From contig JAHFKV010000001.1 in NCBI GenBank assembly GCA_023245155.1, positions 11,034-75,033 on the forward strand: DNA of 64,000 bases, in the 5' to 3' direction. Below, piece after piece: positions 5,369-60,609 of the stretch. Both the position numbers and the translations under genes were made by a program. The stretch is from Candidatus Staskawiczbacteria bacterium (GTDB lineage Bacteria > Patescibacteriota > Minisyncoccia > Minisyncoccales > Staskawiczbacteraceae). Under the pieces are notes generated by a model, which saw only the letters and a program-made list of their open reading frames with translations, ran no database searches and was not told the origin of the DNA. Within the stretch, counting starts at the first letter, position 1. Every line of letters begins with the position of its first letter.

Positions 5369-7921
<2,553 letters not shown>

Positions 7922-28355: not shown

Positions 28356-28389
28356 AAAAGCCGCCCCGATGTACATCGGGGCGGCTTTT
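28356..28389 (-). terminator. rho-independent terminator
   Basis: AAAAGCCGCCCCGAT-GTAC-ATCGGGGCGGCTTTT perfect hairpin after the stop at 28404. Confidence 0.75.
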
Positions 28390-29017: not shown

Positions 29018-29156
29018 TGGCCAAACAACTTTTTATCGAATTCGTCAATATCCCACTATTCATTTCTCAATTTTCCACCCCACAATGGAACTCTCAGAAA
29101 TGCTGGGGAGATTGGCTTTCTCTCCCCCCCCCAAAAAAAAGTGTAAAGAACTGCGA

Positions 29157-29435
29157 TTAACTGTTGCGCGCCGAGTCGGTGGCGGCCGCATGTTCTGCCG
29201 CAACCGGCACCGTTGGTCCGGCCGCCAGAAGTTCGTCGTCCCCCATCCACGAATCTTGATCGTGCGGGTTTTCAACTTGGGCCGTGAAGGCATAGCCGAT
29301 CACCGAGGGCACATACGTGGGCCCATCATAGAAGTGGCCATCGCCCTTCAATTCCAGGAGAATCGGCCGGCGGGCCGTGTCCTGCCAGGCAACATAAAAG
29401 CCTGGTTTAACTGGCTTGAACGGGGTCCAATTCAT
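29157..29435 (-). CDS. orphan protein in GC-rich island 1
   Basis: 92 aa from MNWTPF; GAGGAG SD 6 nt upstream; the track version starts at a GTG at 29480. Confidence 0.55.
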   Translation of the reverse strand: MNWTPFKPVKPGFYVAWQDTARRPILLELKGDGHFYDGPTYVPSVIGYAFTAQVENPHDQDSWMGDDELLAAGPTVPVAAEHAAATDSARNS

Positions 29436-29570
29436 GACGTACTCCTCATTGAATATTGCGGCATGTACAAAGTGCTTCACGGGCTTGCCGCTTTGACGCC
29501 CGTTAATTGATTGATTTACGATAGCACAACTACTGTCTATGTCAATTACATCTCCCCACTACCCAAAAAA

Positions 29571-31080: not shown

Positions 31081-31572
31081 ATGAACCTGCAAGGTCTCAA
31101 TTTCAATTTCGCAGAAAATATCGCCAAGACCATCCAAAACCTGCTCAAGCTCAGGCAATTCCCTCAGGACAGAAGGGGTGTGATATTTGGGAGTGCTCAT
31201 GCGCTACTCCCTGACACGCTCCTCGTTCAGCTCCTAGTTGGGGATTTACCAGCGGAAAGGGCGATACGATTTACCGGCTTCATGAAAGAAAAACTGAATC
31301 GCTCTTCCCAGCACAAAGACCATACAAGCGGCTACCAGAGTGCAGATTTCTCCGACGATCCAACCCGCGACCACAAGATGTACCCTGGTGCAATCACGAC
31401 GCCATCAGGGATCATCTTGTCCTGTTCGGGGGCGCCCTGGCAATGCGACGAACTGATTAATGCGATTGCAGGAGTCAATGCCAAGCTTATGGATGAAGCC
31501 CACGCATACGAAGTCGCAAAGATCAGCAAGAACGAGTGGTTCGACCTGTATCTCAACAAATTCGGCTGGTAG
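31081..31572 (+). CDS. orphan protein in GC-rich island 2
   Basis: 163 aa ORF with promoter, AAGGA SD and terminator; alternative start at 31282 (MKEKLN) if the antisense 31003..31200 ORF is real. Confidence 0.5.
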   Translation: MNLQGLNFNFAENIAKTIQNLLKLRQFPQDRRGVIFGSAHALLPDTLLVQLLVGDLPAERAIRFTGFMKEKLNRSSQHKDHTSGYQSADFSDDPTRDHKMYPGAITTPSGIILSCSGAPWQCDELINAIAGVNAKLMDEAHAYEVAKISKNEWFDLYLNKFGW

Positions 31573-31594
31573 ACATACTGCCAGACTGAATCAT

Positions 31595-31626
31595 AGCGAA
31601 CGCTCGCCCCGTTCGCTGTTTTTTTT
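31595..31626 (+). terminator. rho-independent terminator of island-2 ORF
   Basis: AGCGAACG-7 nt loop-CGTTCGCT then G + T8. Confidence 0.8.
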
Positions 31627-31641
31627 CAATACTTCACTTGC

Positions 31642-31791
31642 GTTTTAAGATTTAGTTTCCAAAGTGGCTCTCGCAGGCGAAAAAGCATGGTTTTTCGTGC
31701 AAAGACACGAAAATTTTTCGCTGAGAGTGCAGGGCGAAAAATCTCGCTGGAGATTTTTACGCCTGGCACTTTGGGGGCTAAATCTTAAAAC
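31642..31791 (+). repeat. three-way-junction structured repeat, copy A (candidate ncRNA)
   Basis: shares the conserved core with 47463-47641 and 60172-60296; 25-bp continuous closing helix; compensatory differences. Confidence 0.85.
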
Positions 31792-31823
31792 ACACCAACC
31801 AAAAGGCGCTCTCCAGCATCTTC

Positions 31824-33218
31824 TTACGTATTCTTAATGTCATTATATACTTTCTGTAAAATTGCGACCATGGCGTAGGTGTCGCGCTTGCAGTATTCAA
31901 GCATATCGTGTTTTAATCTTTCGCGCTGAGTGGGTGGGGTTTTTTCACTGGTCATTTCCGGCCAGCTGGCAGAAGCCGTTTCCCCTTCCTGGATGGCTAA
32001 GTCTTTGTAAGATAATTCCGGGCACAAGACGGGTAAAACCACTTTTAAGGAAGCTAATTTTTTAAATTCACTTTTGGTGTACAGCTGATTTTTAAATTTA
32101 AACAAGAGCATAAGGTCAAACATCCGCTCATTCATAGAATTCAGTAAATCAGAAAATTCCGGATATTCGGCAGCCATTTCGTTGTTGCGCCCCGTTTCAA
32201 AAGGGGCAAACCAAACAATGATGCTGCCTTTTGGCCCTACATCCTTGGCTAACTTCTCTAACAATTTAAGCAACGGATTTTCAAACGCATCCGCTAAAAA
32301 ATCAACGTGCTTGGGTTTTGCACCCGGGGCTTCTTGGATATGCACAGAATATTGGAATGGAATTTGCTGATAAGGCTTGGTGCCGTCAAAGGGCGGAATA
32401 GCATAATTATACGTTTCATAATCAAAAAAATATAAGGGGAATTTCAGCTTGGCCAATTCGTGCTTGATACCTTCAATATTAATTTGGGTGAACGCAACGG
32501 GCGGCTTGAAACCTAGTTTTTCCAAAAGCGCGGCAGGAAGCTTGCGGTAATCCAAAATTTCACGCTCAAGCAAGTGGGCTAACTGGGTTGGCTGGATATT
32601 TTCTGCCAAAGGATAAATACCCTCTGACATTTTAACGTAATATTCCAAATAATCGCAGTATTTAGGATTTTTGCAAGCATTAATCAAACTTATGCTCGGC
32701 TCATCGGTAATATCCATAATTTTCAAAGCGCGCTGTATTTCATCTTTAATTTCGGGCAGCAATTCTTCCACTTCTTCGGTAATATCTTCAACTTCAAAAA
32801 GCTCAACAGGATTAATGGCGCCATGGCGGACATAGTTTCCATTAATATGCACCAATTTCAGGCGCCCAATTTTTTTGCCCGCGTTTTCAAAACAGATTTT
32901 CTGGAAACCCAAATCATACAAGTATTCTTTTTTGACTTTGGTGGCCATTTTTACTTCGTGCATGTCAAAGAAGCCACCAGCAGCGGGAACTAACATGTCC
33001 GCCCGGGCAAGTAGTTCCCCGGCGGTGGCAGTGGGCTGGATCAACACTCCCGAATCCACGGGAAATAATTGCTTAGCCAGCTCATCTACTTCTCTCCCGG
33101 CCGCCAAAATCCGTTCTTTTTGGGCGTCGTCATCGGGCAACTGCTCGGGCCGGTGTTTGGAAAGCCACAAGTACATGGGGCATTCCAAATAATTCATAAA
33201 ATCGGTTTTAGTTAACAT
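31824..33218 (-). CDS. DUF2779-type protein (Cas4-like nuclease N-terminus)
   Basis: MLTKTDFMNYLECPMYLWL start typical of DUF2779; 464 aa. Confidence 0.65.
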   Translation of the reverse strand: MLTKTDFMNYLECPMYLWLSKHRPEQLPDDDAQKERILAAGREVDELAKQLFPVDSGVLIQPTATAGELLARADMLVPAAGGFFDMHEVKMATKVKKEYLYDLGFQKICFENAGKKIGRLKLVHINGNYVRHGAINPVELFEVEDITEEVEELLPEIKDEIQRALKIMDITDEPSISLINACKNPKYCDYLEYYVKMSEGIYPLAENIQPTQLAHLLEREILDYRKLPAALLEKLGFKPPVAFTQINIEGIKHELAKLKFPLYFFDYETYNYAIPPFDGTKPYQQIPFQYSVHIQEAPGAKPKHVDFLADAFENPLLKLLEKLAKDVGPKGSIIVWFAPFETGRNNEMAAEYPEFSDLLNSMNERMFDLMLLFKFKNQLYTKSEFKKLASLKVVLPVLCPELSYKDLAIQEGETASASWPEMTSEKTPPTQRERLKHDMLEYCKRDTYAMVAILQKVYNDIKNT

Positions 33219-37364: not shown

Positions 37365-37399
37365 AAAAGCGCCCCGATGTACATCGGGGCGCTTTTTTT
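37365..37399. terminator. bidirectional terminator between pyk and obg
   Basis: AAAAGCGCCCCGAT-GTAC-ATCGGGGCGCTTTTTTT. Confidence 0.85.
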
Positions 37400-46447: not shown

Positions 46448-47122
46448 TTAATTCTTAATAGTTTCAATTACTTTACCATCGTCAATCCTCACAATTTTTT
46501 GCGCCATTTTGGCGTACTGTTCTTCGTGCGTCACCATAATAATGGTTTGGCCTTCGGCGTGCAATTCCTGAAAAATTTCCATGACAATCGCGCTCGATTC
46601 GTTATCCAAATTGGCGGTTGGCTCGTCTGCAAATAGAATAATCGGATGATTGGCAATTGCCCGGGCAATGCTGACACGCTGCTGCTCCCCGCCGGAAAGT
46701 TGGCTGGGTAAATTATTCAGCCGATGCGACAATTTCACTTTTACCAACGCATTTTTGGCACGAGTATAGGCTTGTGCTTTTTCCATATCTTCCATTAACA
46801 GTGGCAACACCACATTTTCCAACGTTGTCAGCTCTGGTAACAAAGCATAGTCCTGAAACACGTAACCGCATTTTTTCAATCTAAATTCCGTTTTTTCTTC
46901 CGGTTTCATGTTGTGGGCATGCTTTCCATCAATAATAATTTCGCCGCTGGTTGGTTCATCCAGCAAACTCATTTGATAAAGCAGAGTACTTTTCCCCGCG
47001 CCGCTTCTACCCATAATGGCAATAAATTCCCCTTGAGCTGCCTTAAAATCAATGCCTTTTAGCACATTGGTAACTTTATCCCCGTCGGTAAATGATTTGG
47101 TTAATTGTTTAGTTTGAATCAT
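46448..47122 (-). CDS. ABC transporter ATP-binding protein (MacB/LolD type)
   Basis: [24 protein letters not shown]. Confidence 0.93.
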
Positions 47123-47136
47123 ATGTTATGAGAAGA

Positions 47137-47165
47137 TTGATAATGCTAATTTTTTATTATATGAT
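47137..47165 (+). promoter_or_regulatory. candidate sigma70 promoter of island-3 ORF
   Basis: TTGATA-17 nt-TATGAT. Confidence 0.5.
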
Positions 47166-47207
47166 AGATTAAGTTTAGATTAAGTATTCCCAACTCCGAG
47201 GAGAACT

Positions 47208-47384
47208 ATGTTCAGACAAATCCTTTCTGTGATTTCGGCAGTGGCAGCCGTGATCCTACTGATCTGGACCCTGGGAAACACAGAGCCAGACAGCCTTGCA
47301 AGGTGTCTCAGCGTAGGAGGCGAGGTTGTACTGATAGGCGGTTATGCCGTCCTTGCGGGAAAGCATGCTCGGTTCTTAAGTTAA
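47208..47384 (+). CDS. 58-aa hydrophobic peptide in GC-rich island 3
   Basis: not in the track; GAGGAG SD 5 nt upstream; MFRQILSVISAVAAVILLIWTL...VVLIGGYAVLAGKHARFLS; terminator follows. Confidence 0.55.
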   Translation: MFRQILSVISAVAAVILLIWTLGNTEPDSLARCLSVGGEVVLIGGYAVLAGKHARFLS

Positions 47385-47406
47385 GACCTTGCTATCATTC
47401 ACTCAG

Positions 47407-47440
47407 GCCCACACGAAACTCAAGTAGTGTGGGCTTTTTT
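47407..47440 (+). terminator. rho-independent terminator of island-3 ORF
   Basis: GCCCACAC-12 nt loop-GTGTGGGC + T6. Confidence 0.8.
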
Positions 47441-47462
47441 CTTGCATAATTTTCAATCCACA

Positions 47463-47641
47463 TTTGCGAATCGGTGTGAGTTCTGAAAGTAACTCTCGGA
47501 GGCGATTTGGCACGGTCGGTGTGGTGTAATAATTCGACAGAATTAGTATACCACACCGCAAATCGCCGAGAGCGTAGGGCAAAAAATCTCGCTGGAGATT
47601 TTTATGCCCGGTACTTTCACGGGCTCACATCGGTTCGCAAA
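47463..47641 (+). repeat. three-way-junction structured repeat, copy B (candidate ncRNA)
   Basis: same core as copies A and C; 18-bp outer helix with two G-T pairs. Confidence 0.85.
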
Positions 47642-47642
47642 C

Positions 47643-48896
47643 CTAATTCCTCCCCAAAATACTATCCAACGTATTTTTTCTGACAATCATTCTACTTGGA
47701 ATATATCCTGCAATAATAGTGGAAATAATCAACAGGGCCATGCGCACTAGGGTTTCCCCCAGCGGCGCCACTAAAATACCATCGGAAAAAGGAAAATTAA
47801 TGGGGTGAGCCACAAATAAAGGGACTAAAACCACGTATACCAAAATCAGCCCCACAATTGACCCCACTAGCGCGTAAAAAATTGACTGAAACATATACGA
47901 AAACTCAATCGCTTGGCCATTAATGCCAATGCCCTTTAAAATACCAATAAATTTGCGGCGCGTCAGCGCATTAATAAAAATCACAATAAAAATAGTAATG
48001 GAAGAAACCACCAATCCAATGCTACTTAAAAAGTTTCCCAAAGTTCTAAAGGTGGCCACAATATCTTTTAAAAACTGCGGCTGGGCGTCGGCATAGGTTT
48101 GCACTTTAGCGGATTTATCAATACCGGCCAAAATTAACTTTTGCTTAAAAGCAATCGGGTCCACGCCATTTTTTAACACAATGGCAATTTGGCCCACGTT
48201 GCCATCATCCCGCCCAATTAAACTTTTCACTTCCGAATCAATCATAAAAATTCCGCGCCGCACATTGTCCACTTTACTGCGTAAAATGCCTTTCACCGTC
48301 ACCTCGCGCATGACACCATTCACACTAATCCTAATTTTAGTCCCCACGTACACATTTTTTAATGACTGAAAATCCGGGCTATCAATCGCCACATATTGCT
48401 TAAGCAAAAAATACCCCACCAAAACTTTATCATAATCATTGGGCGTCAAATAATTTCCTTCCAGCATATGACCCGAAAGGCCGGTGACCGAATTTTCATC
48501 CGCCGGGTTTATGCCAATTAATTGGGCCGAGGCGGTGTTGGCTTTGTCAGTTTCTTTTTTGGTTTGGTAATTGGCTTCCACCAAAGACCCGCTGGTATAA
48601 CGCGCGGAAAAAGACTTCACATCCGGCATATCTTTTAAAATATTTATAATATTCGGACTGCCTTCAATGTAAGCTTTGTTGTCCAAACTGGAAATAATTA
48701 CATCACCCGTAAATTGAGCGTGATAGGCCGCAATTGACCCTTCAATTAACCCCACCAAAATTCCGCTCACCACCACCAAATTCAAAAACGTTAAAATCAT
48801 CACAAACACAATCAGCCCCGTAGTCCAAGGGTTTGATCTTCTAATCTGCCTCCAGGCAAGAAAGAAACCGATTTTGATGTTTAAAAGTATTGACAT
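47643..48896 (-). CDS. ABC transporter permease (FtsX/MacB type)
   Basis: 417 aa, N-terminal TM, large periplasmic domain, C-terminal 3-TM FtsX domain. Confidence 0.88.
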   Translation of the reverse strand: MSILLNIKIGFFLAWRQIRRSNPWTTGLIVFVMILTFLNLVVVSGILVGLIEGSIAAYHAQFTGDVIISSLDNKAYIEGSPNIINILKDMPDVKSFSARYTSGSLVEANYQTKKETDKANTASAQLIGINPADENSVTGLSGHMLEGNYLTPNDYDKVLVGYFLLKQYVAIDSPDFQSLKNVYVGTKIRISVNGVMREVTVKGILRSKVDNVRRGIFMIDSEVKSLIGRDDGNVGQIAIVLKNGVDPIAFKQKLILAGIDKSAKVQTYADAQPQFLKDIVATFRTLGNFLSSIGLVVSSITIFIVIFINALTRRKFIGILKGIGINGQAIEFSYMFQSIFYALVGSIVGLILVYVVLVPLFVAHPINFPFSDGILVAPLGETLVRMALLIISTIIAGYIPSRMIVRKNTLDSILGRN

Positions 48897-54094: not shown

Positions 54095-54178
54095 CGGAGG
54101 GTATCGGACTCGAACCGATGAGTCCCTTGCGGGACACAGCTTTCCAAGCTGTTGCAATAGCCACTATGCGAACCCTCC
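54095..54178 (-). tRNA. tRNA-Ser (GGA), class II with long variable arm
   Basis: manual fold: GGAGGGT/ACCCTCC acceptor, ACAGC-TTGGAAA-GCTGT, variable arm TCCC-GCAA-GGGA, ATCGG-TTCGAGT-CCGAT. Confidence 0.9.
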
Positions 54179-54424
54179 CAGGGTATCTTTTAATTTCTCC
54201 TTTAATACTTCACGCCCATGGCCTGTTTTAAAATACTTTTCAGCTTCCTGGGCATCCTTCTTACTAATATAGGCTTCGTAAAAAATTAAGTCAAATGAAC
54301 CATTTTTTGAAGTAAAACTAGAATTTCCAGATTTATGATCTGCAATTCTGCGCTTCAAATCATTAGTAAAACCTTTATAGAGTTTACCGTTCTGTTTAAA
54401 ATATAAAATATAAAAATAATACAT
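54164..54424 (-). CDS. small GIY-YIG (URI-type) nuclease
   Basis: YYFYILYFKQNGKLYKGFTNDLKRRIADH; the last 15 nt including the stop lie inside tRNA-Ser. Confidence 0.8.
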   Translation of the reverse strand: MYYFYILYFKQNGKLYKGFTNDLKRRIADHKSGNSSFTSKNGSFDLIFYEAYISKKDAQEAEKYFKTGHGREVLKEKLKDTLGGFA

Positions 54425-55276: not shown

Positions 55277-55294
55277 GAATTTGGAGCGAAGGCA

Positions 55295-55348
55295 TTCTTC
55301 CAAAAGAGCTCCTCGGAGGCGAGCCGCTTTGTCGGCTCGCTGAGAGAG
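55295..55348 (+). repeat. partial (5' half) copy of the three-way-junction repeat
   Basis: TTCCAAAAG-AGCTCCTCG-GAG-GCGAGCCG-CTTTGT-CGGCTCGC-TGAGAG; no P3 and no 3' P1 arm. Confidence 0.55.
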
Positions 55349-55417
55349 AAGCAAATTTTTCTATATCGTTGTGGAAAAATTATGCTGTATCTTTTGGGGG
55401 AATGCCCAAGCAAAATG

Positions 55418-56326
55418 CTAAATTTGCATGTCTCTTAATGCTTTAACCCTTTCCTCAATAGGTGGGTGGGTGGAAAATAACTTTACGAACCAGCTGCCTT
55501 TGCCAGAATCTTCTTTAAATGGAGATTCAATGTATAAATGCGAAGTGGCGGTGTTAGCGCTTTTCATGGGAGTTGGGTCGGCTGCAATTTTTTCCAGTGC
55601 GCTGGCCAGGCCTTCCGGGTAACGCGTCAAAAGCGCTCCATCGGCATCCGCTAATGATTCTCGCTTACGAGAAATGGCTAACTGCAACAGGGTGGCTGCA
55701 ATCGGCGCCAAAATGGCTGCAATTAATCCGGCAATCATTAAAATAGCGGCAGCGTTGTCGCGGTCGCGCCCGCGGGCGCGACCGCCCCCAAAAAAACTAA
55801 TCCGCAAAAAAAAGTTTGCCAAAAGCGCCACCACGCCCGCCAGCACCACAACCACCGTACTTAAAAGCATGTCTTTATTGCCGATATGCGACAGTTCGTG
55901 AGCAATTACGCCCTCTAATTCTGTTTTATTTAAACGCTGCAAAAGCCCGGCAGTTACAGCGACTACCGCATGATTTTTATCGCGCCCCGTGGCAAAAGCA
56001 TTTGGCTGCATTTCTGGAGTAATGTAGATTTTAGGAACGGGCAAGCCCGCGGTAATGCACAAATTTTCTATAATCCGGTATAGCTCCGGATTATCTGCCT
56101 TCTGGATTTCCTGCGCTCCGGCCATGCTCAAAACAATTTTATCTGAAAACCAATAACTGCCAATACTCATGGCAACACTCAAAATAACCGCAAACACCAA
56201 AATAGCATCGCTTTGTAATGCCTGCGAAAACAGCCAGCCGATAGCAATCACAAACACCAAAAACCCAGTTATCAAAAACCATGTTTTACGAGTATTAGAA
56301 TCTGCTTGTGTGTAAATTGAAGCCAT
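55418..56326 (-). CDS. htpX: M48 zinc metalloprotease HtpX
   Basis: HELSHIGNKD zinc motif, 4 TM. Confidence 0.92.
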   Translation of the reverse strand: MASIYTQADSNTRKTWFLITGFLVFVIAIGWLFSQALQSDAILVFAVILSVAMSIGSYWFSDKIVLSMAGAQEIQKADNPELYRIIENLCITAGLPVPKIYITPEMQPNAFATGRDKNHAVVAVTAGLLQRLNKTELEGVIAHELSHIGNKDMLLSTVVVVLAGVVALLANFFLRISFFGGGRARGRDRDNAAAILMIAGLIAAILAPIAATLLQLAISRKRESLADADGALLTRYPEGLASALEKIAADPTPMKSANTATSHLYIESPFKEDSGKGSWFVKLFSTHPPIEERVKALRDMQI

Positions 56327-58500: not shown

Positions 58501-60138
<1,638 letters not shown>

Positions 60139-60171
60139 TTAAGATTTATGATTTAGGATTTATGAAGCGAC

Positions 60172-60296
60172 GCGTCAGTTTCCAAAGTAGCTCTCGGAGG
60201 CGATTTTGCAGGTCCCGCGAAGCGGGAAAATCGCCGAGAGGCGCAGGGCAAAAATCTCGCTGGAGATTTTATGCCCGGTACTTTGGGGGCTGATGC
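60172..60296 (+). repeat. three-way-junction structured repeat, copy C (candidate ncRNA), in the groES-groEL spacer
   Basis: core identical in architecture to copies A and B; 189-nt spacer. Confidence 0.85.
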
Positions 60297-60318
60297 AGAG
60301 CGAAATACCCGCACGCAA

Positions 60319-60609
60319 CTATTCAATAATCGCCAAGATATCGCTTTCAGAAGCAATCAAATACTCTTTCCCATCCACTTTAATTTCACTTGGGCCATAT
60401 TTCATAAACAGCACTTTTTGACCAGGCATCACAGACACCGGAACAATTTTTCCATCATCGGTTTTTTTACCATTACCGACAGCAATAATGATACCTTGTT
60501 CGGATTTTTCTTTATCAACCGTATCAGGCAAAAAAATCCCCGTCTCCGTTTTTTCGCTGGCTTTAATGGGTTCTATTAATATGTGATCTGAAAGTGGTTT
60601 TATATTCAT
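60319..60609 (-). CDS. groS: co-chaperonin GroES
   Basis: MNIKPLSDHILIEP start, 96 aa. Confidence 0.98.
   Translation of the reverse strand: MNIKPLSDHILIEPIKASEKTETGIFLPDTVDKEKSEQGIIIAVGNGKKTDDGKIVPVSVMPGQKVLFMKYGPSEIKVDGKEYLIASESDILAIIE

Follow-up and report, generated by a model that had tools for sequence, protein, structure and literature searches.

The 64-kb stretch of Candidatus Staskawiczbacteria DNA analyzed here, hereafter the window, contains at positions 47463–47641 of the plus (+) strand a structured repeat element, copy B, that lies between two transporter genes of an operon read from the minus (−) strand. The 3′ arm of copy B ends at 47641, one nucleotide before the stop codon (47643–47645) of a convergent FtsX-type permease gene (47643–48896, −), assigned from its open reading frame (ORF) and homologues, whose C-terminus (...LGRN*) is intact. 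The 5′ arm begins at 47463, 22 nt past the end of a terminator T-run (47440), and the next gene of the operon, recognized by its ORF and by homology, encodes an ABC transporter ATPase (46448–47122, −). The original prediction had placed the element correctly in this arrangement, had recognized it as the longest copy of a structured repeat, and had suggested that it travels with a small gene located upstream. The first two points hold and the third does not. Copy B belongs to an undescribed family of dispersed, 135–180-nt non-coding elements that occurs, as far as sampled, only in Patescibacteria (also known as the candidate phyla radiation, CPR), and for which no Rfam or literature counterpart was found. 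The placement against a stop codon that was noted for copy B is the rule for the family.

With 179 nt, copy B exceeds the other three copies of the window (A, 159 nt; C, 144 nt; D, 135 nt). As a whole unit, delineated by the minimum-free-energy (MFE) fold and by covariance models, it consists of a closing helix (P0/P1), a three-way junction, and two arms, P2 and P3. The segment 47455–47650 (+) folds with an MFE of −103.3 kcal/mol (z = −12.4), a value that none of 200 shuffles equaled, and copy B scores 143 bits with covariance model R1 and 114 bits with model R2. In the MFE fold, the 5′ arm of P0/P1 spans 47463–47491 (+) and the 3′ arm 47612–47641 (+), with one bulged C at 47620. The outer 18 nt form the P0 helix as first described, TTTGCGAATCGGTGTGAG (47463–47480) facing CTCACATCGGTTCGCAAA (47624–47641) in 16 Watson–Crick and two G–T pairs. 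This 18-mer occurs once in the window, with 0.02 occurrences expected by chance, and GCGAA at 47466–47470 occupies the place of a GCGA tag found in most copies. The P2 arm (47493–47572, +; MFE fold and family alignment) is built, from base to tip, of CUCUC/GAGAG, a 3-nt GGA bulge (47498–47500), and a 9-bp helix, GGCGAUUUG/CAAAUCGCC; it also carries an asymmetric conserved 7-nt bulge, GCACGGU (47510–47516; family consensus GCAUGGUC), and a cap (47517–47558) that is long and variable in copy B. The cap contains the predicted 9-bp stem, CGGTGTGGT (47517–47525)/ACCACACCG (47550–47558), separated by 24 nt, but what had been called its loop pairs further in the MFE fold. The remaining parts, defined likewise by the MFE fold and the family alignment on the + strand, are junction J2/3, CGUA (47573–47576; family consensus YGYA), the P3 hairpin GGGCAAAAAAUCUC-GCUG-GAGAUUUUUAUGCCC (47577–47609, with the GCUG loop at 47591–47594), and junction J3/1, GG (47610–47611; family consensus across the junction CGGUAC). 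A 20-mer core of P3 is identical across many genomes.

All copies in the window are on the + strand. Copies A, B, and C came from repeat finding and alignment; a first covariance model, built from these three and two copies of other genomes, picked up the diverged copy D, and an exhaustive search with a second covariance model returned exactly these four. Copy A (31637–31795) lies past ORF-A (31081–31572, +) and its terminator (31593–31619, followed by a T-run), 28 nt before the stop of a DUF2779 gene (31824–33218, −). Copy C (60164–60307) sits between groES (60319–60609, −) and groEL (58501–60129, −). Copy D (55283–55417) touches the stop of an M48/HtpX gene (55418–56326, −) and precedes BacA/UppP; its P3 loop differs, and the GCAUGGUC bulge is absent. 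The four copies are mutually 44–74% identical. Their outer closing helices and P2 tips have no sequence in common, with pairing retained.

Outside the window, a scan for the exact P3 20-mer in one genome per species gave seven places in six Patescibacteria assemblies, labeled Liptonbacteria, Yanofskybacteria, Saccharibacteria, or unclassified, together with three matches in other phyla that fall in coding DNA and are due to chance. A P3 18-mer identified 75 metagenomic loci, about 37 of them with the full element; L004, L008, L010, and about 35 metagenome matches were set aside as bare chance matches. Five further loci (L037, L047, L057, L072, and L081, all Ga0265292_*) were also rejected as members: they are intergenic arrays of four to seven short perfect hairpins with GTACG/AGTAC spacers, one of the hairpins equals the P3 18-mer, probably by chance, and a TRM5/TYW2-type gene neighbors them in an organism that is possibly an archaeon. 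With a covariance model, some 30 additional loci came to light in Patescibacteria genomes and metagenomes. From four copies in 64 kb and the extra copies seen in other contigs, we extrapolate to a few tens of copies per genome. In L003, two copies stand in tandem, 40 nt apart (1461–1600 and 1640–1781, +), the first of them weak (19 bits). The phage records, plasmids, and viral contigs searched yielded no family member. Rfam 15 at the gathering threshold returned only two tRNAs in the window, no Rfam family overlaps any element in 25 member loci (L046 gave a 16S fragment and a group I intron), and the literature on CPR structured repeats and RNA motifs contained no description of this element that we could find. 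At E ≤ 10, the region 47300–47750 gave nothing relevant, including no match to RF00001, and 5S rRNA, considered for its three-way junction and words such as GAGAG-GUAGGG, was rejected accordingly.

The family fold consists of a 25–30-bp closing helix and a three-way junction from which two arms emerge: P2, with the conserved GCAUGGUC bulge and a variable tip, and P3, an almost invariant AAAUCUC-GCUG-GAGAUUU. That the P3 stem hardly varies is in part an artefact of finding loci through the P3 word; members found only via the model (L058:1177, L075:5401, and L029:3922) keep the GCUG loop and covary in the stem. Across 39 distinct sequences, in an alignment that is fitted to the covariance model, 92.3% of pair cells are paired, versus 38–48% in slid controls, and 46 of 48 pairs have changed on both sides; no shuffle reached the observed values. 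RNAalifold, applied to a MAFFT alignment of five sequences, recovered the same three helices with 17 of 48 pairs compensatory. Unpaired or sequence-specific blocks are conserved as well, namely AAAGUA-ACUCUCG, a GSA bulge, GCAUGGUC, CGAGAG-YGYA, and CGGUAC, and these recur in distant Patescibacteria genomes. A coding function was rejected by inspection because the AUG of the GCAUGGUC bulge is missing in B and C and the helices covary. A pseudoknot between the bulge and J2/3 or J3/1 was also discarded, no covariation being visible by eye in the alignment.

Only the + polarity strand is selected to fold. The original prediction had read the strand from the two G–T pairs of P0, which would be A–C mismatches on the other strand, and this reading is right family-wide because three features agree. 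First, the model pairs on the + polarity strand include 93 G–U against 31 A–C, and U·G pairs recur in P1. Second, in all 38 elements compared, the modelled strand has the lower folding energy, on average 8.3 kcal/mol below that of its reverse complement, a comparison that does not depend on the alignment. Third, the P0 mismatches are G·A/A·G on the modelled strand and would be U·C/C·U on the opposite one. The covariance score falls from 113–115 bits on the modelled strand to 13–18 bits on the reverse. These same counts weigh against an alternative in which the reverse complement, located right past the stop codon in the host message, would stabilize the mRNA, serve for its processing, or put a brake on translation. 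Such effects are reported for REP sequences of E. coli located within 15 nt of a stop codon, and ERIC repeats influence mRNA in a similar way. The element is necessarily inside the polycistronic messages groES-groEL, L16-L29, L14-L24, and FtsX-ABC, the stop codon is −26 to +16 nt from the end of the match in most loci, and the reverse complement of copy B also folds strongly (−88.3 kcal/mol, z = −9.4). A function in the sense mRNA is nonetheless improbable: the A–C oppositions that would become its G–U pairs are three times rarer than G–U on the modelled strand, the sense strand is the less stable one without exception and would carry pyrimidine mismatches in P0, a terminator separates gene and element in L044 and L038, and relatives lack the element at the same junctions.

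The placement of the element is strict. With neighbors called by our own ORF caller, the 3′ end of the element faces the 3′ end of an opposite-strand gene in 41 of the 43 elements that have a 3′-side neighbor, and the distance of the stop codon from the match end is −18 to +5 nt for the most part (range −26 to about +50). Both neighbors are on the opposite strand in 29 cases, which places the element between co-directional genes and antisense to both. Some host ORFs enter the element and stop inside it, examples being PPDK in L062 and enolase in L014. The genes abutted in the window are DUF2779 (A), FtsX (B), groES (C), and htpX (D), and the list of housekeeping genes abutted comprises PPDK, RmuC, enolase, L11, rpoC, pheS, SHMT, ribonucleotide reductase, ftsZ, S7, mreB, EF-P, L16, and L14. 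Two copies occur in one ribosomal protein operon (L006), at L16/L29 and L14/L24. In L046, a copy (575–736, +) is antisense inside a 16S rRNA gene (652–1043, −), right after ...GGAUU (~position 789), where a group I intron (69–586, −) has its 5′ edge. L075 has inverted copies on both sides of ftsZ (5401–5550, +, and 6807–6955, −), and the one upstream of ftsZ is among the two exceptions to the antisense-after-stop rule. Three familiar classes were rejected: a riboswitch or 5′ leader, with 41 of 43 elements followed on the 3′ side by an opposite-strand gene; an intrinsic terminator, with no hairpin and trailing U-run at the ends of B, C, and D on either strand; and a retron msr-msd, with convergent housekeeping genes downstream and no reverse transcriptase.

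The polarity extends beyond the immediate neighbors. In member loci, 232 of 265 genes share one orientation, opposite to the element, and in 29 of 31 loci the element strand has a negative GC skew and so is the C-rich one; the direction of replication was read from this skew alone. The one locus that is a candidate for separating gene from replication polarity, L039, has no clear gene on its 3′ side.

A 520-nt insert (47123–47642, defined by comparison with relatives) separates the permease stop from the start of the ABC ATPase gene and contains, besides copy B, a small gene outside the element. This gene has a promoter-like site found by the promoter scan, TTGATA-17-TATGAT (47137–47165, +), a 58-aa ORFan, mini-ORF B (47208–47384, +; 52% GC, compared with 42.7% for the window), and an intrinsic terminator, GCCCACAC...GUGUGGGC followed by U6 (47407–47440, +; hairpin 47407–47434), which was read by eye because its 12-nt loop exceeds the limits of the scan. 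The order promoter, GC-rich ORF, terminator, and element, which had been claimed for both A and B, is complete in B; at A, the ORF, terminator, and element are present, but the scan gave no promoter-like site for ORF-A. That this whole order constitutes one mobile unit is refuted on the terms of the original prediction itself, and we give it almost no credence. It appears on the + strand at two of the four window copies, A and B, which also share the 8-mer TTTTCAAT, but there is no same-strand upstream ORF at C, at D, or at most of about 35 other members, and the upstream neighbor is same-strand in 6 of 37 cases, about the 12.5% background. ORF-A has no relationship to mini-ORF B, and neither has a Pfam match. 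The sole homologue of ORF-A (75% identical, L105) retains the same terminator and lacks the element, mini-ORF B has no homologue among 5.8 billion proteins, and in L090 and L091 the same FtsX/ABC junction holds a different ORFan mini-gene without the element. Element and mini-gene therefore occur independently of each other, and the gene positionally tied to copy B is the convergent permease.

Small foreign genes seem to have landed repeatedly at the FtsX/ABC junction itself. In L090 (7758–8282) and L091, it carries a 525-nt insert made of an unrelated, opposite-strand 77-aa ORFan and a terminator. Of 32 non-redundant copies, five have the 8-mer TTTTCAAT at a distance of 23–52 nt upstream of the helix (rough chance estimate ~0.1): copy A (~31612), copy B (47450–47457), L005, L059, and L029:3922, the distance being 23–25 nt in A and B.

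Comparison of orthologous sites established that the element is a self-contained insertion module. Syntenic loci were found through permease homologues, 75–85% identical, from Parcubacteria/Paceibacterota. In four of them (L087, L108, L110, and L112), FtsX and the ABC ATPase are 1–11 nt apart, and the 520 nt at 47123–47642 are therefore an insertion. An empty D site exists in L087, where M48 and BacA are 11 nt apart (TAG-TTTTCATATTT-ATG) and where the window has copy D in the gap. No target-site duplication is visible in a comparison of copy D with this empty site, though divergence is high. Conversely, similar copies occur at unrelated sites: L005 and L062 carry 94% identical elements past different genes, RmuC and PPDK, and their homology stops ~26 nt upstream and ~11 nt downstream of the helix. 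Across the family, conservation ends sharply at −6 and +5 around the helix, and the 3′ flank has the consensus GAGCGAAAUU. The edge tags 5′-GCGA and GAGC-3′ face each other as C–G and G–C with tandem G·A/A·G in about 60% of copies; they are Watson–Crick paired in B and L001, and therefore represent a helix extension and not a duplication. The outer helix GCGAGGCAAUA...UAUUGCCGAGC is semi-conserved in many copies and replaced in those of the window.

Once inserted, the element is better conserved than its surroundings. At three orthologous loci, identity of element versus flank is 93.3% versus 74–80%, 98.7% versus 89–93%, and 85.5% versus 44–75%, and L002 and L050 differ by compensatory changes in P1. 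Because of the empty sites, the copies in different contexts, and the above-flank conservation, the family looks both mobile, on rare occasions, and selected in place.

The sharp edges and empty sites would also be expected of a non-autonomous mobile DNA element that is active as a folded single + strand. A trans-encoded HUH/Y1 transposase or tyrosine recombinase would read P3 and the GCGA/GAGC foot, and replication-coupled insertion would set the orientation, as in REPIN/RAYT or integron attC sites. This explanation is possible, if rather unlikely, and it is a close rival of the antisense RNA proposed below. Besides the sharp ends, it accommodates the lack of a promoter and a terminator, the presence/absence polymorphism, the near-identical copies in different contexts, the host ORFs that use a stop codon inside the element, the insertion in the 16S gene and intron of L046, and the strand-specific folding of a C-rich strand; C-GAA-G tips and YGAR tandem G·A pairs are also stable DNA motifs. 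However, no transposase or recombinase adjoins any copy, no target-site duplication is visible at the D site against the empty site, and copies within the genome are too divergent to resemble a recently active repeat population. Selfish decay would not predict orthologous copies conserved above their flanks with compensatory changes, and five conserved blocks around a three-way junction go far beyond attC or REP sites. The folding strand is, by GC skew, the leading-strand template, the opposite of IS200/IS605 top strands. In IS200/IS605 elements, the active folded strand is on the lagging-strand template and is sense to co-directional genes; an IS200/IS605-derived (PATE) origin was rejected, the folded strand here being C-rich and antisense to 232 of 265 genes.

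We tentatively prefer, with a confidence somewhat short of even, a model in which the element acts as a + polarity RNA, antisense to the host operon and bound by a trans-acting protein. It is favored because structured RNAs typically show wobble pairs, many conserved blocks, and selection in place. We infer the RNA nature of the folded molecule, the existence of a protein partner, and what the element does for the cell. The RNA would be made at a low level from whatever transcription enters at the 5′ side. At copies A and B, read-through of the small gene's terminator ~20 nt upstream would supply this transcription; for copy B, the possible source is the promoter-like site at 47137–47165, and the terminator of mini-ORF B ends 22 nt before the element and could let + strand transcription leak into it. 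The transcript would then fold into a stable rod, in which P3 and the bulge may be recognized by the trans-acting protein. New copies would arise rarely, by a copy-and-insert process, and would survive only just past a gene end and in antisense, to be kept there by selection.

Several observations speak against such an RNA. Antisense sites in ribosomal-protein operons, groESL, and a 16S gene are odd for an expressed RNA gene. No conserved promoter was found: conservation does not extend past −6, 14 of 35 upstream regions contain a −10-like hexamer versus 11.6 ± 2.4 in shuffles, without enrichment, and promoter and terminator scans at C, D, and A gave nothing convincing for the element. There is no room for a promoter in many loci because the start codon of the next gene is only 8–40 nt from the 5′ end of the element. 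A terminator after the element is likewise missing at the ends of B, C, and D on either strand. No linked partner protein emerged from an all-against-all comparison of the ORFs within 2.5 kb of 40 elements, which gave only orthologous contexts. The element is also dispensable, given that about 120 kb from at least six relatives hold no copy. Lastly, a DNA-level, replication-coupled process fits the strict orientation equally well because gene and replication polarity are confounded.

A variant of the antisense RNA would turn the missing terminator into a feature. The element may be a protein-binding RNA scaffold transcribed outward into the 3′ end of the neighboring gene, so that each copy would combine the scaffold with an antisense "guide" over the stop-codon region of a housekeeping mRNA, or over the 16S rRNA in L046. 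We regard this as a long shot. It would explain why the polarity is strictly antisense, why copies abut gene ends, why no terminator follows, and why the scaffold is deeply conserved and selected in place; if it is true, CPR bacteria would have an RNA-guided control system of their own, encoded in the genome and templated in cis. The scaffolds of TnpB and IscB (reRNA/omega RNA) are similar in that they are conserved, structured, and situated at one end of a mobile unit, directly followed on the 3′ side by variable host DNA; no tnpA, tnpB, or iscB was found beside any copy, and there was no match to Rfam HEARO or IS605-orfB.

Compared with known systems, the family resembles REP/REPIN, ERIC-type repeats, and attC sites in behavior and orphan structured RNAs in conservation, and it fails defining features of each family tested. 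REP, BIME, and REPIN sequences (mobilized by RAYT, a Y1 HUH transposase) are likewise extragenic, multi-copy, hairpin-forming, free of ORFs, and long-lived in their lineages; they, too, are often just past stop codons and inside operons, with a short tag at the foot of the palindrome. Their GTAG or CGTC tag is not present here, where the tag is GCGA...GAGC, and the three-way-junction fold, the five conserved blocks across distant genomes, and the strict antisense polarity set the element apart. In contrast to REPINs, the window copies form no population of close copies around a master sequence, and no RAYT has been found so far, the search covering 64 kb of a 662-kb contig, nor any protein family that recurs beside the elements. 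ERIC/IRU, Correia, BOX, RUP, and Bacillus cereus bcr repeats share the 100–180-nt size, the intergenic location, the folding as RNA, and, in some, compensatory changes; they also show presence/absence polymorphism and, for some of them, an orientation-dependent effect on neighboring genes. Such repeats are confined to a genus or family, are found in both orientations, and usually have conserved terminal inverted repeats and TA-type duplications, whereas members of the present family occur in several lineages of Patescibacteria, nearly all of them antisense, and no duplication is visible at the D site. One trait of miniature inverted-repeat transposable elements is seen, presence/absence at orthologous sites combined with similar copies at unrelated sites.

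Integron attC sites also conserve structure over sequence, and they fold on one strand, antisense to an upstream ORF whose stop they abut or overlap; in chromosomal integrons, the folding strand is the leading-strand template, as here. The attC boxes RYYYAAC/GTTRRRY are absent from the element, which ends in GCGA GGCAAU ... AUUGCC GAGC, and the element differs from attC by its larger sequence conservation, its association with core operon genes and not cassettes, its scattered copies, and the absence of a linked integrase. Orphan structured RNA motifs of the Rfam kind have the covarying helices, the conserved junction and bulge nucleotides, and the strand-specific G–U pairs seen here, and riboswitch-gated antisense RNAs have a similar geometry, with a structured element convergent with a gene 3′ end. 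Unlike these, the element lacks an Rfam match, a promoter, an expression platform, and a downstream gene on its own strand, and it occurs in what we extrapolate to be tens of copies per genome. What is unusual is that an element so deeply conserved in sequence across Patescibacteria is so strictly antisense and so closely bound to gene ends, and no described repeat or RNA family could be matched to such placement.

Patescibacteria make up a large share of bacterial diversity and have tiny, tightly packed genomes; to our knowledge, very few non-coding elements have been described in them. The element costs ~150 bases per copy, sits in the most conserved operons, and is better conserved than the surrounding genes. 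If the element works as RNA, CPR bacteria would have in it a new and abundant ribonucleoprotein component or regulator; if it works as folded DNA, it would point to a strand-specific mobilization system not yet known. The covariance model lets annotators mask these sites and correct gene ends that now run into the element.

Some minor features of the window deserve mention. A 56% GC island (29085–29510; genome, 43% GC) has long ORFs on both strands (141 aa, +; 107 aa, −) with no Pfam match. Two bidirectional terminator-like hairpins, each with an A-run, a GC stem, and a T-run, lie at 28357–28389 and 37365–37397 and have the common core CCCCGATGTACATCGGGG; similar hairpins occur past the L11 gene in L044 and L038. 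Finally, the gene for a long-arm tRNA (54095–54178, −) is immediately preceded by a small ORF (54164–54424, −) that looks GIY-YIG-like by eye.

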